DNA of 64,000 nt from Moniliella sp. 'wahieum'. Lineage: Eukaryota. The position numbers and the translations under genes were made by a program. Of this stretch, positions 43,044 to 63,400 are shown one piece after another. Under the pieces are notes generated by a model that had not been told where the DNA came from, searched no databases, and worked only from the letters and a program-made list of their open reading frames with translations. Position 1 is the stretch's first letter; every line of letters starts with the position of its first letter. The DNA lies in the NCBI GenBank assembly GCA_003971905.1, contig RSEE01000006.1, positions 806,001 through 870,000 of the forward strand, written 5' to 3'.

Positions 43044-43560
43044 TTAGTAGAACGTCTTGGGCCGGTTCGCGGCAAAGACCGACTTGGCGGCCGACTTGCG
43101 GTGCGGCAAGGGGAACTTGAGGTGAGGCTGGATGAGCTGCTTGATGTAGGGCCGCCGCACGTCTGCTGCCTTTTCAATCTCGGCAATCTTCAGAATATGG
43201 ATCGAGGCAAAGCGGGCACGGTGCCGCGCCGCCATGTCCTGGTACATGTTCTCCACCGCTTCGGCACGGGAAAGGGAACGGTACTCCTTGTACATGTTGT
43301 GCGTGCCCGACCGCGAGTTGTACCGCAGCCACACGCCAAAGTTCTTCACCTTGAGCGGCTTGGCCTCGGCAATCGCTTGCACCGCCACAATCTCTCCCGT
43401 TGACTTTTTCATCTTGCGCAGCTGGCGAACAAAGTACCAGAAACGCGACTTGGCCACGACCGAGTTGGGCGCAAAGATGCGCATGCGGTACAGCTTGGGG
43501 GGGCTCCTTCTCCGTGGGCAGGTGGCGCCCCACAACGAGATACTCAGTGAAGCGGGCCAT
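43044..43560 (-). CDS. RPL20: 60S ribosomal protein L20 (eL20/L18a)
   Basis: [39 protein letters not shown]...[22 protein letters not shown]...KFPLPHR..RPKTFY. Probable 40-nt 5'UTR intron 43634-43595. Confidence 0.97.
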
Positions 43561-54840: not shown

Positions 54841-57086
54841 ATGCACGTGGTGCGGCTGGCACGCAGGACGCTGCGTCCTGGGGCGCAGGTACTTTCCTCG
54901 TCCCGCATGGTGCGCCCTGTGCCCCTGCGCGCGTTAAGCACGCCCAGCTGGAAGCGCACTCATCTCATCTCCGACCTAACTGAGGCAGATGTGGGCGCAG
55001 AGGTGCAGCTTACTGGCTGGCTCCATCCCGTACGAGAACGGTCCAAGCATTTGGCCTTTGTCAAACTACAGGACTCGACCGGGGAGGTGCAGTTGCTTGT
55101 GCGTGTGCCGGAGCAATCAGTTCCCGGAAAGGAGGACGCCCAGGAGCTGCTTGCCAATGTACGGCGGGCGCCTGTGCAGAGTGCCGTGGCTGTGACCGGT
55201 ACGCTGCGGAAACGGCCCGGACAGAACGTGAATGCGGTTATGGCGAACGGGGCGTACGAGTTGGAACTGAGCCGGTTCCAAGTCCTCAACCCTGACCCAC
55301 TCCCCTTTGCACCCCATTTGCCCGTGCTGGCCAACGAGACGCTGCGAGCCCGGTATCGTTACCTTGATCTTCGTCGGCCCGAGCTGGCTTCCAAAATCAA
55401 GCTTCGGAGTCGGGTGGCGCACATTGTGCGTACCTCCTTCACGATTATGGGTTCGACGAGGTGGAGACCCCACTCTTCTCCGCTCCACGCCCGAGGGGCG
55501 GCGGAGTTCCTCGTGCCCTTTCGGCAGGGCCGCTCAAGGCGTCCGACCCGTTGTTTTATGCTCTTCCCCAGAGCCCCAGCAACCTAAGCAGCTGCTTATT
55601 GCCTCGGGTGCGGTGGATAAATACTTCCAGTTCGCACGATGTTATCGCGATGAGGACCAACGCTCAGATCGGCAGCCTGAATTCACTCAACTCGACTTGG
55701 AAATGGGCTTTGTATCGCCCTCATTGGAGCATGAGACGGGGGCAGAGCAAATGGCGGATTGGGGGAAAGGAGGTACGAGAGGTGGTAGAAGGGTGATGCG
55801 TGCATCTGGATCCAAGTGAAAGGGGAAGATCGGTGAAATGCGGGCTTTATGCCCGAGAGGGAGATACGGGTTGCCCGTGGTAACGTTTTCCCATGCGATG
55901 CGAACATATGGGTCGGACAAGCCCGATCGACGATTTGGTCTGCCGATCCGGACATTGTCAGACGCCTTCTCCGGGGAGGAGAAGGATTGAGCTGGACTTG
56001 CTCGTTGTGCCCTCTGTAGAGGGTTTGAGCAGCAAATTGGAGAAATCCATCGGGGCTCTCAAGCCAACCCCAGCACGCAGGCAGTCCTCACTCGCCTCTG
56101 GCCCACTGCTTCACGTACCATCGAGTGCTTCAAGGCCAAACTTACTGAGCCCGTTGAGGGGGTGGCTCAAAGGATTCTCACTCGCAGTGGGCTTGGTAGG
56201 ACAATATGGTCCCTCCCCCGACTGTGCCAGGAGAGTGGAGGAATTATTGACGTCGGCATTGACCGCAGCAGGCAAGGAGACTTTCCGCAGTACTTCGGAT
56301 CCCAGTTCTGCTCTCATTTTCCTCGCCCCCCGTTGCGGGCCGGTGTAGGTGGATCCAGTGTACTGGGTTCTGCCCGTCTTTTGGCCGCGAACCTGATTGA
56401 GGGGGCAGGTCGCCAAGTGAGGAGTACCAAAGACGATATGTTCTGGGTTACCGAGTTCCCTCTCTTTTCACGTGAACTGGCCGAGGATGGGACGGATGTG
56501 GGGTGGACCAGCACTCATCACCCCTTCACCTCCTCTGACGAGCCAACTTCCATTGCTCGCGACCCAAATTTGACGGACGAGACGATTGGTCAATTGCGGG
56601 GACAACACTATGATCTCGTTCTCAACGGCACGGAAATTGGCGGTGGAAGTGTCCGTCTTCACCTAGCGCGAGAGCAAGAGATTGTCTTCCGTCGCATCCT
56701 CAATCTCAGTGATGAAGAAGTTTCTCGGTTCAGCCACTTGCTTGGGGCCCTGCGCTCGGGCGCGCCGCCCCATGGGGGATTGGCGATTGGTACGCACCCC
56801 TCTCTTACGATTGCCCGTGATGTTGTGGACTGGAAATACTAACTTGATGTGTGCACAGGCTTTGACCGCCTGATGGCGGTTCTGACCCACTCTGAGTCCA
56901 TCCGGGATGTGATTGCGTTCCCGAAGACGGCTTCGGGTGCTGACCTTCTGTTCGGTTGTCCCGCGCCTGTGAGCGACATGATCGACTTTAAGGTCTCCCC
57001 TACAGGAGAAACGGGGCGACAGCAAGAGGCAATCCTAAAGCGCTATGGGCTGGCAAAAGCGGCACCGAGCCGCCCAAGACAGCGTA
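54841..57086 (+). CDS. MSD1: mitochondrial aspartyl-tRNA synthetase
   Basis: KRTH..., [91 protein letters not shown]. Intron about 56790-56858. Confidence 0.95.
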
Positions 57087-57252
57087 AAATGCATCCCTCC
57101 CCTCTGTTGGAAGACCTTCAATTGGCAAGGTTGCGACGGCATCAAATTGGCTGTCTACCGAGCCCTTCAAAGAGGAGCAAATTGTAGAGCAAGCCCACAG
57201 GATATCGATATCGCCCGAGAACACAGACTGGGCTGCTGGGTGCTGCAAGCGA

Positions 57253-57301
57253 GTCACGTGCAAGATTCACTGCGAGATCCCGCGCTGGATTCTGTAGGGT
57301 T
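57253..57301. promoter_or_regulatory. GTCACGTG (Cbf1-type E-box) plus TAGGGTTT (telobox) upstream of RPS25
   Basis: GTCACGTG at 57253-57260 and TAGGGTT at 57295-57301. Confidence 0.5.
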
Positions 57302-57509
57302 TCCAGGGCGTAATATTGCCAGCACTGCCCATTTGCTCATTGGGACTACACTGCCCCGATGGCTTGCCCAGGCGCGCTATCGAGCTCATCGCTGTTCCCT
57401 CTCCCGAATCTATCTCCATCAAGCCAACCCCTGGGAGCTGGTCGCAAGTGAGTTTACTACTGATAGCCTCCTGCTCCCTCTCTTCGTTTTCTCTCTGGCC
57501 TCAGGTACA

Positions 57510-57938
57510 AGTAGGATGCTCGCATCCGGCTGTATGCGGCATCCTTGTGGGATACGCCAGAGTGGAGCAGTGCTGGCTGTGGCGTTGATGGCTGGCCATG
57601 TTGGATAGAGGTGAAGCTAATGCTTATTGTCAGTGCCCCCTAAGAAGTCGGCGATCCTGGCGTCGGCCACCAAGAGCGCGAAGAAAAAGAAATGGAGCAA
57701 GGGCAAAGTGAAGGACAAGGCACAAAACAATGTTGTGCTGGATAAACCGACGTACGACCGCATCATCAAGGAGGTCCCGACGTTCAAATTCATTTCGCAG
57801 TCGACGTTGATTGACCGGTTAAAGATCAATGGTTCCCTTGCCCGGCGCGCGATCAAGCACCTGGAACAAGAGGGCCAGATTAGGCGCGTGGTCCACCACC
57901 ACGCCCAGTTGGTCTACACTCGCGCCACGTCAGACTAA
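57510..57938 (+). CDS. RPS25: 40S ribosomal protein S25 (eS25), start codon split A|TG by an intron
   Basis: (M)PPKK...KKKKWSKGKVKDKAQNNVVLDKPTYDRIIKEVPTFK..LIDRLKINGSLARRAI..HHAQLVYTRAT. The exon starts TGCCC at 57634 after GCTAAT...CAG. Confidence 0.97.
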
Positions 57939-58748
57939 GAAATTCATATATATCCCCCTATGACCTAGGTACGCTGCGAACAGTGTGCGCAGAACCCTGA
58001 TTTTGTGCCCCTGAGCTCTGACCATAGCAGTTTGAGGAGTTTACCTTGTGCCTAACCCCTTACCCCTTACCCCTTTCTGGTCGACTTCAAATGGGCATGA
58101 CTGGCATCAGACATGTCAACATTTAGGACGAGGCTAACGTCGGTCAGGTACGCTGCTGCGTACACCCCGGGCACACCAATTGGGATTTCGTGCACTTGGT
58201 ATTCAGCAGATGTTTCCACTGCGTTTTAATTAGGCCGACTCCAGAGGAGGGATATCGAATGGAGAAGATAACAGAGACCAATGTGGATATCATCGCGTGG
58301 GTATTTGAGAAGTAACGAGCAACCGGGAATTTACGAGGAGACGGACGACTGGGGGGCTCTATATATTGTGTGGCACCGGCGGTGCCGGCGATGCCGGCGG
58401 AGAGAGTTGGGGGCTGCCGGGGTTCCGGGCGGGGGCGAACAGGACCTTTTTTCTGTGCGCTTCGCCCAGACACCCGAACGGGCGGGCGAGGGGTGGAGAG
58501 CGTAATAGAGCGAACACGAACGTCTTATGGCATATGGTGGGCGGAGCGACAGTGTTGCCCACATGTCTCATTGCGGCAGCGCCGCAGAGTTGCGCCACAG
58601 CCCACGGATATAGTTGGTGCCTAGCATCTCTGTAGTATAGCGCCCATTATTTAGCCCCCGTCATCAGCGCATCAGCCCCATCGCCGTCGAACTCTCTTAC
58701 CTTCCTCGCTTCTGTTCCACCACCTCCTTCTTCCGCACTCTTCTCATC

Positions 58749-60358
58749 ATGGCGCTTGCAAACCAAGTCCCCACCCCGGTCCGCTTCGGCTCACCCGAGC
58801 CCGTCGACAGTCCTCCCCACCCTGTGGAGGGCGAGGCACCAGATCTTCCGTTCTCATCCGGGCCACTCGCGTCAGCTCGAGTCCGACCTTTTGCCTGGCA
58901 TGACCCACCCGGGAAGTAGTACGTATGATTCTGATCAGTGCAGGCCGCCATGGCAAGCAACAACAGCGTATGCTAATTGATATGTGGACGTGGTGTCGCA
59001 GCGGGAGTTATCTACGTTATGGATCGAGCCACGGCCAATGGGTTTCAATACGGGGCTCATGGCTGGTCCAATTTTGGGCAGGGAGCGCCCGAGACGGGAC
59101 AGATCCCTGGAGCCAACCCCAAGCCGGCGTCCATTGATCTCTCTCCTTTTGGGGATAACGTGCATGAGTATGCGCCGACGACGGGGGTGACCCAACTGCG
59201 CGCGGCGATCGCAAACTACTACAATGTCACCTTCCGGCAAGGCAAGACGTCCAAGTACACGGCAGCTAACGTGTGTGTTGTACCCGGTGGACGGGCGGGG
59301 CTGTCGCGAGTGGCGTCGATCATCGGATCGGTGAATACGGGCTACCAGTTGCCAGAATACACAGCGTACGAGAACATGTTGGGCGTGTTTAAAAGCCTGG
59401 TGCCCATCCCGACTCAACTGAGCGAAGAGAACAACTACAAGCTTCGGATGAATGGGCTCCGCAAAGAAATTCGCAACCGCGGTTTGTCGACGGTGGTCAT
59501 GTCCAACCCGCGCAACCCAACGGGTCAGCTGGTAGAAGGGGATGAACTGAAGGAACTGGTCCAGATCGGGAGGGACATGCACGTGTCGCTTGTGCTCGAT
59601 GAATTTTACTCGTGGTACATGCTTGAGGGCGAGTTGGGGCGTGCGGTAAGCGCGGCCGAGTACATTGACGATGTGAACAAAGACCCAGTGATCCTGATTG
59701 ATGGATTGACCAAGAACTTCCGCTGCCCTGGCTGGCGGGTGTGCTGGGTGGTGGGTCCTCAGGACTTGATCAATGCCCTGGCCGAATCGGGCTCCTTCCT
59801 CGACGGCGGGGCGAACCATCCCTTGCAGCTGGCGGCACTGCCTATGCTCAATCCCGAGCACTGTGCCCAAGATCGGATGGCGCTTCAGGTCCATTTCCGC
59901 GCCAAACGTAACCACGTGCTCGCTCGACTGGCCAAGATGGGACTCCCGGTGGAGGTCCCGCCCGTGGCTACATTCTATATTTGGCTCTGTGTGCGCAAAT
60001 TGCCGGTACCCTGTGTTCGGGCATGACGTTCTTTGAGGAACTGCTCAAAGAGAAGGTCATCACTACCCCAGGCATCTTCTTTGACCTCAACCCGGCCCAT
60101 CGTCGCAACATTATCGACCCCCTGGGAGCCGTTCGTGCGTCTCAGCTTTGGCCCGCCGCTCGAGGAGCTGGACCGTGGTTTGGATGGGATCGAGCGCGTT
60201 TTGGCCAAGGTCAATTTGGGCCCGCTTGCCGAGAAGGCCGAGAAGGTGGGCAAGCTTCCGCGTCTGGGGAACTACAAGCGCCACCCGCAGCCAGTCTACC
60301 TTCTTTTAAGGTCCATTTTTGGGACTGGTGTTCTCGCCCATTTTCTGGGCACATATAG
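58749..60358 (+). CDS. PLP-dependent class I/II aminotransferase
   Basis: GQGAPETG, HEYAPTTG, VVPGGRAGL, SNPRNPTG, LDEFYS, DGLTKNFRCPGWRV (PLP lysine), TPGIFFDLNP, VRLSFGP. Intron about 58923-59001. Confidence 0.92.
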
Positions 60359-60465: not shown

Positions 60466-63400
60466 TCAGAAGAAGATGGACAGGGGCATGAGCGTATCGC
60501 TGGCAAATAAGAGCTGGCCCGAATAGCTCTCCTGCTCTAGCCACCGGGTAGGAAACTGGACCAAATGGCCTTGGGTGCTCTCAAGCAAGCGACCAATGGC
60601 AGCAATGTCTTCAGGGGTAAACTCGCTGGTCCCGCCCGAGCCAGGCGGCGGGTGAGGCTGAGCCCCTTGAGCTGGGTTGGCCGAATTCTTTTCCTCCGTC
60701 GTATTCTCTCCCTCTCGCAGCTCGGACGTTTTGCCCTTCCCAAAGGAACCCTGGGAAGGAGGAAGTGGAGCCTCTCCCATCGTGTTGAAGGAGGCGGTAG
60801 CCGAGTGAGACTGAGCCATCTCTTCCTGAGCCTTGGCGAGCCGGTCGGAATAGGAGATGAACCATTTGTACTCGCTCCACGTCTTGACAGTGTTCCGGAA
60901 CAACGCGAAGGGCACGACGGTAAATGAGGGTGTTGCGCTCGGCCACCGCGGTCCACAGATCATAATAATACTCGTCCTTGATGGGATCCTCAAAATCGCC
61001 CGGAGAAATGGGGATTTGGGGTCCAGGCATGGCAAACCGACCGACCGGCTTGCGTCGCCGGGAAGAAGCCGGGGGGGCGCCCTCTTTGTTTAGGTCGTTA
61101 TCAAAGTCCAAGGCGCTACCCGTACCATTGCCCTCCGCGCCAGGGCGGGGCTCCACCGGGAGCTGGGGGGTGGGCACCAAGCCCCCTGGGGTCCGGCGGA
61201 TGTCAGGCGTAGGTGCATTGGGGTCAGTGGGTTGCGAGGTGGATGCAGATGGAGAAGAGGAAGGAGAGGCCTGAGCCTGCAGTGCATCCACATCGATTCC
61301 CACATGTTCTTGCATGAGCCGGATACGCATTTGGTGGGGCATGCGTCCCACCTTGAACGGTATGCCAGCCATGGTCGAGTCAATCAAGTCCGTGTCCCGT
61401 AACACTACCGCCAGTTCCGAGTCCCGGTCGCCGCGTTGGGAACGCTCATTGATGTTGGCCGATCCACAAATAATAAGGCGATCATCGACAATACACAACT
61501 TGCCATGGATGTAGACTTGCTCTGTTGTGATTGCACCATTCTTGAGCCGCCCCCAATTGCGCAAACTAAAGAAGGAGATGTAATCGGCCGGGTCGATGCC
61601 ATGGGCTTGCAGGCGGCCAAAGATGGAATGCTTACCCCGACAGATAGTACGATATTGGCCTTCAACAATGAGTCGGACACTGCTTGCATCAGGGTGGTCG
61701 ATAGGGAGGGGGAAACCTGGTATGAGCGGTATGACGATTATGGCTCGCCACGGCGTGCCGTCACGATGGGCACGGAGGATGCGATCGACCAAAGCATCGC
61801 CAATGTGGTTCTCGATTTGCGTTGTCTCCACAACCGTGGAGGTGAGGAAGAATTGGTTCTCAATGTAGACAAAGTGCTCCGAGTTCTCAATTGCCTTGAG
61901 GTACGCGTTCTGGATCGAATGTTCCACCCGGTCCGGCGTGCCAATCGACCAGGGACCCGCCGACCTGCAAATCTGCGCTTCGCATGTTCCCGTCAGGCCA
62001 AATTGCTTCAGTTCGGCTGCACTAAAATCAGCAGGAGGGAGAAGAAAAGGCATCTCCCTCGTATGGTTTTTGATCCGCAGGAGGTAGTTCCAGCGCTGGA
62101 TAAAGTGCCGGGCCAAATCCCGGGCCGGCTGGCCGACAAGTTGCATGCCCACATCGTGCCAAGGCATGCGCGGGAACTTGTCTCTCGGGAATAGGTCTTC
62201 TTCAGGACGATTGAGCACGTTCCATTCCTTAACCCGTTCATTGGCATAGTCCTGGCCCGGCCAAATGTTTGCTTCGATAGGGCCGTCCGCAGTCTCGCGG
62301 ATGGGGCCCAGCAGACGTGGATCATCAAACTCGTACTGTACCCCGGTCTGGTCCGGATCCGCCTCCACATTGTCCGTCAGAACATGGGCATGCGTATCCC
62401 ATCGTCCAAAGCAGAGGTCAAACCCACCCATAAACCCAATCGCCTCGTCGATCACGCACATCTTTTCGTGGTGCGCCCAGTAAAAGGTGCCCGTTTGGAA
62501 ATGAGAAGGAGAGCGCTGGACCATGATTCTTGTGCAAATTGATCAAGCGTTGCTTGCTGTAGTTCGAGTCGGTGGGAGTGAAGTTGTTAGACACCTCGTT
62601 GTAGAGAATGACAAAGATCTTGACTCCCTCCTCGGCTTTTTGGCGGAGAATGGTGTCAAGACGAAACCCTGGGCGCCCCGGGCGACGCAGATATAATTCC
62701 TAATGAACAGTTAGTGTTCGGTTCCCATCAGAAGAGCGTGAACATACCGGTGAAAGCCACCAGTCGTGAATCATGATGCGATCCTTGGCACGGGCAAGGG
62801 CCTTAGACAAAGCCCAGTAGTAATCCCTCCCATCAATCAATGGCGTGGCATTGACGTGAAGTCGAATGGGCGCAAACGAGTCGAATCGGTTTGGACCGGC
62901 ATAGGGGTTGCGTCTGGCCACATCTTGCATCGACGCAACAAACTGGTTCATTTGTCGCTGGTTGTGTGCGACTAGCTTGAGCTTCTGGTGTGAGTTGATG
63001 AGGTAAAATGTGTGCGCCGACACACCATGAGCGTGCTGGAGGGTAATGTCCTTGCCTTCTTGCATATTGGCTGCCTGGCCTTTGATGAGGAGCGCGGCCA
63101 AGTCCATGTGCTGGTCGGGTTCCCCAGCTTCCTGCCCCGTCTGGTCGCGGGCAGGCATCTCCTCGTCCTCATCCGACTCGCCCATCGACTCCTTCAGGGT
63201 ATGGATGGGGTGGCGATAGATCCGCTTGGGGCGCGTGATGCGGAAGTCCATGTCAAACAAAAACACATCGTCTACCTTGAGGTCTCCAGGGTGGTTCGCC
63301 AGGATGAGATAGGACTCTCGGACCAAACACCACTTTTGATTCTTGCGCGTTGCAATGCGCAGGGCCATGTGTCCATGCGAGGACTTGCGGGAGACGGGGG

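Follow-up and report, generated by a model that had tools for sequence, protein, structure and literature searches.

Splicing very probably completes the start codon of a fungal eS25 (RPS25) gene

In yeast, the ribosomal protein genes RPL30, RPS14B, RPS9 and RPL22 autoregulate through structures that lie at or near splice sites. Conserved intron structures are also described for RPL18B, RPS22B and RPL28, with repression shown by reporter assays (PMC13232506, in extract). An intron can also sit within the start codon itself; that of Saccharomyces cerevisiae RPL20A and RPL20B is given as '5'-A intron TG-3'' in the passages of PMC3226532 drawn on here, which also place the 5'-UTR intron of RPS25B at -436..-14, counted from the start codon. 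Ribosomal protein genes are enriched in start-codon introns, and introns that disrupt the start codon are called 'relatively rare' (Nielsen & Wernersson 2006, PMC1626468, in extract). For Yarrowia lipolytica, 42 'start codon' introns are described, with the donor after the A, the T or the G and with high splicing efficiency and expression (excerpted text of PMC13309789).

Within the 64-kb stretch of DNA analysed here (the window), the coding exon listed in Table 1 encodes eS25. Its product, 100 residues followed by a stop and read from a coding sequence free of frameshifts, matches PF03297 (Ribosomal_S25) with an E value of 6e-39 and 132.8 bits against a gathering cutoff of 28.8, over profile positions 11-101 of 101. 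The best protein match is the Logan-derived P0002 (96% identity), and among the other relatives Tilletiaria anomala (85%) and Tilletia species (81-82%) are followed by other Ustilaginomycotina; the gene would be the single-copy eS25 (RPS25) gene of an Ustilaginomycotina lineage near Tilletiaria and Tilletia. The PPKK residues are encoded from 57636, and the methionine preceding them needs splicing. The exon opens TG CCC CCT AAG at 57634, directly behind the acceptor tgtcag (here and below a slash within a sequence marks an exon-intron junction), the coding frame carries a TAA at 57618-57620, and from there to the PPKK codons it holds no ATG. The frame upstream of 57447 is open, yet it contains no in-frame ATG usable as an alternative start. 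Ahead of the TG stand a branch motif and a YAG, and an A followed by a GT donor is found upstream at 57447/57448 and again at 57510/57511. The arrangement is common to relatives, being present in the DNA of the metagenome contig L001 and betrayed by V-PPKK in four protein models; since relatives share it, the split start codon exceeds what chance would give, which holds for none of the other features proposed at this locus. An earlier, sequence-only reading of this DNA had proposed that the start codon is built by splicing, from an A of the 5' exon and the TG of the coding exon. On reading the sequence from 56900 to 58500 we found all the motifs it had listed at their positions and confirmed that the coding exon is without an in-frame ATG; the acceptor/TG junction in L001 and in the models of relatives supports its central proposal. 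It had also held that RNA retaining the last intron lacks a start codon, which agrees with the in-frame TAA and with the lack of any usable AUG. From the sequence of this locus and its relatives, we consider it very probable that the eS25 start codon is completed by splicing.

Table 1. Positions in the window of the features of the eS25 locus and of two neighbouring introns used for comparison.
Feature	Position	Strand	Basis
3' end of exon 1 (5' UTR), A57447 being the putative first base of AUG	57420..57447	+	sequence; transcription start inferred
Distal donor GTGAGT, preferred; context CAA/GTGAGT	57448..57453	+	sequence; homologous loci
Proposed phase-1 intron of 186 nt within codon 1 (start codon)	57448..57633	+	splice signals; length near the 108-170 nt of 9 other loci
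Pyrimidine-rich, A-free tract within the proposed intron	57467..57502	+	direct reading: no A from 57466 to 57502
CAG (57502-57504), candidate microexon GTACAA (57505-57510) and candidate donor GTAGGA (57511-57516)	57502..57516	+	motifs in sequence
Predicted hairpin: 12-bp core and weaker outer helix 57506-57509/57546-57549	57506..57549	+	folding
Branch motif CTAAT (gCTAATg, 57616-57622), putative branch A 57620, 13 nt from the intron end	57617..57621	+	sequence
Acceptor tgtcag, CAG at 57631-57633	57628..57633	+	sequence; L001 has ccgcag/TGCCTCCCAAG
eS25 coding exon: TG, 100 codons and TAA (57936-57938)	57634..57938	+	translation, Pfam, proteins of relatives
Local intron, AspRS: donor GTACGC, branch TACTAAC, joins ..LAIG/FDRL..	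56790-56858		homology
Local intron, aminotransferase: donor GTACGT, branch GCTAAT, acceptor cgcag, joins ..HPGS/TGVIYV..	58919-59001		homology

The N-termini of 16 fetched eS25 relatives were compared, M-PPK(K) being the usual beginning of the protein. A methionine stands directly ahead of PPKK in 9 of the 16, including Ustilago, Pseudozyma, Ceraceosorus, Exobasidium, Acaromyces, Sympodiomycopsis, Jaminaea rosea and one Logan protein, and the sixteenth relative, P0019, opens MAPAAQKK. In the other six this methionine is missing: a valine takes its place in four, P0002 (..FTFTVPPKK), Tilletiaria (..SPTVPPKK), Tilletia indica (..GAVPPKK) and T. horrida (..GMVPPKK), a leucine in the T. laevis model, while that of T. 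maclaganii, flagged as partial, opens at PPKK. Valine is what reading gTG through an acceptor AG would give, and the read-through N-terminus of P0002, MLSSFTFTV, would be compatible, as judged from the protein, with a DNA sequence of the form ctaATGct...pyrimidine tract...acag/TG. All six fetched models of the lineage (P0002, P0003, P0004, P0006, P0007 and P0014) were thus built without the split start codon, and each either has a spurious extension at its N-terminus or is flagged as partial. Three further proteins of 130-148 amino acids, P0008, P0009 and P0011, probably have the same N-terminus problem. L001 allows the layout to be read in DNA: this Tilletia-like contig encodes an eS25 with 82% identity over residues 1-100, and its sequence cttccgcag/TGCCTCCCAAGAAG has the same acceptor/TG CCN CCN AAG arrangement as the window. 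The sole A/GT with a consensus donor in L001 is CCAATCA/GTAAGT, at position 7/8.

L001 was one of 80 eS25 loci obtained by a metagenome scan, and it alone comes from this clade; the prokaryote genome collection gave five short, contaminant-like matches (47-55% identity) that were of no use for comparison. The PPK exon start could be recognised in 14 of the 80 loci, with one A/TG (L001), nine in which the exon adjoins an acceptor and four whose ATG is uninterrupted (L042, L067 and the identical pair L038 and L039). In all nine acceptor-adjoining loci (..yag/CCNCCNAAA) an ATG/GTGAG or ATG/GTGCG lies 108-170 nt upstream, and the donor hexamers of these nine start-codon introns are GTGAGT, GTGAGC or GTGCGC, that of L001 being GTAAGT. 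Judging by these loci, an intron at codon 1 is normal for fungal eS25, and the present lineage would carry it 2 nt earlier.

Several side observations were made on these contigs. Seven ascomycete-like ones (L022, L024, L025, L028, L029, L030 and L033) have a start-codon intron of 166-170 nt in which blocks such as TGATGGATT and TTGGATG do not vary, and they share a predicted fold of 37 pairs, four of which show compensatory changes. Identity among the seven introns (0.74) is lower than identity at third codon positions (0.83), and close kinship may therefore explain the shared blocks and fold. A covariance model of the seven-intron core (R1), tried as a conserved eS25 intron element, matched only its seven training sequences when the window and the 80 loci were searched at E below 1, and the element was rejected; with filters off, R1 reached at most -0.4 bits in window positions 57300-57700 and had no match in L001. 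L001 begins within 7 nt, and L034 within 1 nt, of the first eS25 donor (ccaatca/gtaagt and g/gtgagt, respectively), and L001 ends ~200 nt past the stop codon, which would fit contigs derived from unspliced transcripts. The eS25 (P0003) and the mitochondrial AspRS (P0126) of Tilletiaria anomala are both reported on a 375,072 bp contig, suggesting that the AspRS-RPS25 neighbourhood of the window is conserved in that species.

A single intron of 186 nt spanning 57448-57633 is the simplest model for the window, and on balance we favour it as the way in which the start codon would be assembled. Introns within or abutting codon 1 are the rule for fungal eS25, and a length of 186 nt and a GTGAGT donor fit that series. 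Exon 1 would be a short 5' UTR ending at A57447, the sole upstream A with a consensus donor behind it, and one ordinary U2-type intron would follow, with the donor, pyrimidine tract, CTAAT branch and CAG given in Table 1; these signals are present in the DNA, whereas the use of this donor, a transcription start upstream of it and the lack of any isoform with a microexon are what we infer. With exon 2 opening on TG CCC CCT AAG, the joining of A to TG would mean that the spliced mRNA alone encodes MPPKK..., and the expected mRNA would join 57447 to 57634 and read ...GCAATGCCC.... Rfam gave no match at E up to 1 in window positions 57100-58300 or in L001, thus no intronic snoRNA or other known element. 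The CAG/GTACAA/GTAGGA sequence in the interior of the intron and the 12-bp hairpin over it would most likely be incidental features.

The second A/GT site, CAA/GTAGGA with its GT at 57511, is the source of the main alternative. Transcription would start in or just after the CT-rich tract (~57467-57500), exon 1 would end at A57510 and the intron would be 123 nt long, so that GTGAGT at 57448 would be untranscribed promoter sequence; the protein would be identical, a caveat that attaches to the favoured model. Pyrimidine-rich blocks are common near fungal transcription starts, and the CT-rich block would suit such a start. This donor also retains the G at +5 and gives A/TG, and the geometry of a 123-nt intron is normal, with distances of 109 nt (donor to branch) and 13 nt (branch to acceptor). 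We nevertheless hold the proximal donor to be unlikely: its positions +3 to +6 are buried in the hairpin, at a pair probability of 0.96, its first exon would be very short, and its hexamer departs from the GTGAG, GTGCG, GTAAG and GTACG that begin 12 of 12 comparison introns. These 12 are the introns of the nine other fungal eS25 loci, that of L001 and the two local introns of Table 1, which were verified by homology, scans of ORF junctions in this GC-rich and indel-affected window having returned 125 and 797 candidates that were ambiguous. The analogous donor of L001 (GTACGT, 527) cannot produce a start codon, and the model that results from it is without any in-frame methionine.

The sequence-only reading had gone further and proposed that both donors are used, that GTACAA is an optional microexon and that the hairpin acts as a splicing switch, possibly under feedback from eS25. 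Every motif that this requires is there, and its claim that inclusion and skipping both yield caA/TG was borne out on the sequence, with no new upstream ATG created; the isoform with the microexon would be 6 nt longer and read ...CAAGTACAATG... (also ...GCAAGTACAATGCCC...). Even so, we judge the model as a whole improbable, and geometry speaks most directly on the point. Inclusion requires a 57-nt upstream intron, 57448-57504, in which A occurs only at 57451, 57456, 57459, 57463, 57465 and 57503, the 35 bases 57468-57502 being A-free (by direct reading, 57466 to 57502). The sole CTRAY-like branch of this mini-intron is CTGAT, whose A57463 is separated from the donor by 15 nt and from the acceptor by 41 nt. 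Donor and branch are 57-531 nt apart in the 12 comparison introns, so the upstream intron is not of workable geometry; the 41 nt to the acceptor would not disqualify it alone, because the branch of L001 lies 55 nt from its acceptor. Nor does the arrangement of motifs exceed chance. When the intron interior was shuffled 2000 times with dinucleotides preserved, a YAG, then 1-30 nt ending in A, then GTNNG turned up in 30% of the shuffles, and in 4.6% of 2000 when a pyrimidine-rich run before the YAG was added, a null that is harsh because shuffling scatters the real tract.

The microexon also finds no counterpart in L001, the one related genomic locus. None of the four internal A/GT sites of L001 has a G at +5, so the acceptor, microexon and donor are not conserved there. 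The local alignment of the window intron with the L001 intron scores 15 against a shuffle mean of 18.2, with 195 of 200 shuffles scoring as high, although at 82% protein identity L001 is too distant for intron conservation to be judged. A recursive splice site (a zero-length exon, AG/GTAAGT) was rejected as a reading of the same sequence, CAG/GTACAA having A rather than G at +5. The optional microexon of the sequence-only reading therefore does not find support, on the short distance from donor to branch and on the lack of anything comparable in L001.

The hairpin itself is robust as a prediction. Its core pairs 57513-57519 with 57539-57545 and 57521-57525 with 57534-57538, with U57520 bulged and a loop of 8 nt, no run of four or more of one base occurs in the stem, and the mean pair probability is 0.96 in both 221-nt and 381-nt contexts. 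The proposal that the GT is bulged out of a hairpin is correct at the level of prediction, GU 57511-57512 being unpaired with a probability of 0.92-0.99, and the exposed GU in a robust ensemble favours a switch. Positions +3 to +6 of GTAGGA have probabilities of being unpaired of 0.27, 0.06, 0.00 and 0.00, however, and such pairing would hinder U1; a cryptic site that stays silent accounts for this no less well than one under regulation; if the hairpin is active at all, it would keep GTAGGA silent in this way. The exact overlap of the predicted stem with a splice-site-like sequence may not be accidental. As a fold it is statistically ordinary: the 61-nt fold has z = -1.13, with 27 of 200 shuffles as stable, and is equalled by 16.8% of 9,135 61-nt windows across the 64-kb window, and the 42-nt hairpin (-17.6 kcal/mol) is equalled by 2.9% of 12,792 42-nt windows. 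With z = +0.14 for the 221-nt fold and no similarity in L001, the regulatory hairpin of the sequence-only reading gains no support from these results.

A stem could be functional even if the single intron is used, by shortening the effective distance from donor to branch or by binding a regulatory protein, with no microexon needed. Besides the high pair probability, the 221-nt minimum free energy structure, in which the hairpin caps a longer stem of 57469-57500 paired with 57556-57580, lends itself to this reading, and structured introns matter in yeast ribosomal protein genes (extract of PMC12350175). Neither the z of the 221-nt fold nor the Rfam search gives it any support, L001 shows no similarity and R1 reaches no more than the negative score given above, and we regard it as improbable, to about the same degree as the microexon switch. 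The boldest version makes the hairpin a sensor, whose opening or binding, for example by free eS25, would shift the choice of splice site, including the 6-nt microexon, and so tune the amount of translatable eS25 mRNA; we rate it very doubtful. Autoregulation through intron structures in several yeast ribosomal protein genes (PMC13232506) is a precedent, and RPS25 occurs 0 times in the text of that paper available here. eS25 autoregulation was not found in a literature search at the level of titles and abstracts. Optional microexon, hairpin switch and eS25 feedback would each be ideas with several points against them and a small probability, the feedback being pure conjecture. If the sensor reading were true, a basidiomycete would have a feedback loop in which a ribosomal protein acts on an intron that forms the start codon, and the regulatory reading would matter only if RNA shows isoform switching.

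Two other readings would do without a split start codon. The sequence-only reading had itself allowed that a base may have been dropped from the assembly, the true ATG lying at 57633/57634, and the window does carry indels. In the mitochondrial-type AspRS gene (~54880-57187, + strand), a frameshift-tolerant alignment to the related protein P0122 shows 16 frame changes at 55436-56560, mostly beside short G or C runs, all within 1.1 kb and none elsewhere in the gene, which indicates either a locally unpolished assembly or a decaying gene. The RPL20/eL20 gene on the - strand has an intact ATG at ~43559 and a stop at ~43044, and its frame shifts inside a run of seven C (~43491-43497), with PKLYRMRIF... 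continuing in the other frame; a run of either six or nine C would leave the frame unbroken, which makes an indel error in the homopolymer likely. In the aminotransferase gene (58837-60284, + strand), homologues align in two frames over 59957-60118, which indicates further indels. We also noted a possible 40-nt 5'-UTR intron just upstream of RPL20 (GTGCGT...CTCTGAC...ctcag).

These local indels put single-base details at some risk, and the problem is local, because long ORFs elsewhere are intact, for example one of 643 codons at 60614-62542. The eS25 start site lies outside homopolymers and its coding sequence is free of frameshifts, and branch motif and acceptor stand exactly where the end of an intron needs them. 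As the acceptor/TG layout is common across the lineage, in the DNA of L001 and, by implication, in the four V-PPKK models, a missing A is unlikely, and we consider the artefact very improbable. The remaining reading has no splicing at all, with a near-cognate GUG start (57633-57635) on a transcript that is either unspliced or initiated internally. The window, L001 and relatives do have an in-frame GTG directly ahead of CCC CCT AAG; its G is dictated by the acceptor AG, however, and the branch motif, the pyrimidine tract and the AG, which are conserved, point to the end of an intron. The GUG has a poor flanking context, and a ribosomal protein gene, which would normally be very highly expressed, would not be expected to rely on a start of this kind. 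It seems to us the least credible of the readings considered.

The main value of the split start codon lies in annotation. Gene callers that require a contiguous ATG fail on the A/TG layout, and the public eS25 models of Tilletia and Tilletiaria carry wrong N-termini. The 5' introns of fungal eS25 genes would also form a small natural series in which to follow intron shifts around codon 1, lying in the 5' UTR in S. cerevisiae RPS25B, after the ATG in nine loci and inside the ATG in the present lineage.

Set beside the described systems, the window intron most resembles those of RPL20A and RPL20B, as set out in the extract cited above: the coding part of exon 1 would be a single A, and the ATG would exist only once spliced. 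It differs in that the gene is eS25 and not eL20 and the organism belongs to another phylum, the RPL20 gene of the window itself having an intact ATG. With the start-codon introns in the cited extract of Nielsen and Wernersson it shares a codon-1 intron in a short, lysine-rich, conserved ribosomal protein; the nine fungal eS25 loci have the phase-0 form, whereas the present intron would interrupt codon 1 itself, 2 nt further upstream and in phase 1. The Y. lipolytica introns are of the same class, but in an ascomycete yeast, and in the excerpt their number of 42 is not split by base and RPS25 is not seen among them. RPS25B of S. cerevisiae is of the same gene family and has its intron just upstream of the coding sequence, yet, as described in the passages used, that intron is wholly within the 5' UTR and leaves the ATG intact. 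Like the autoregulatory yeast introns described in extract, the window has a predicted stem in a 5' intron near a splice-site-like sequence; unlike theirs, its predicted stem shows no conservation in L001 and no structural excess. The split A/TG of eS25 is a further case of a rare and already known class.
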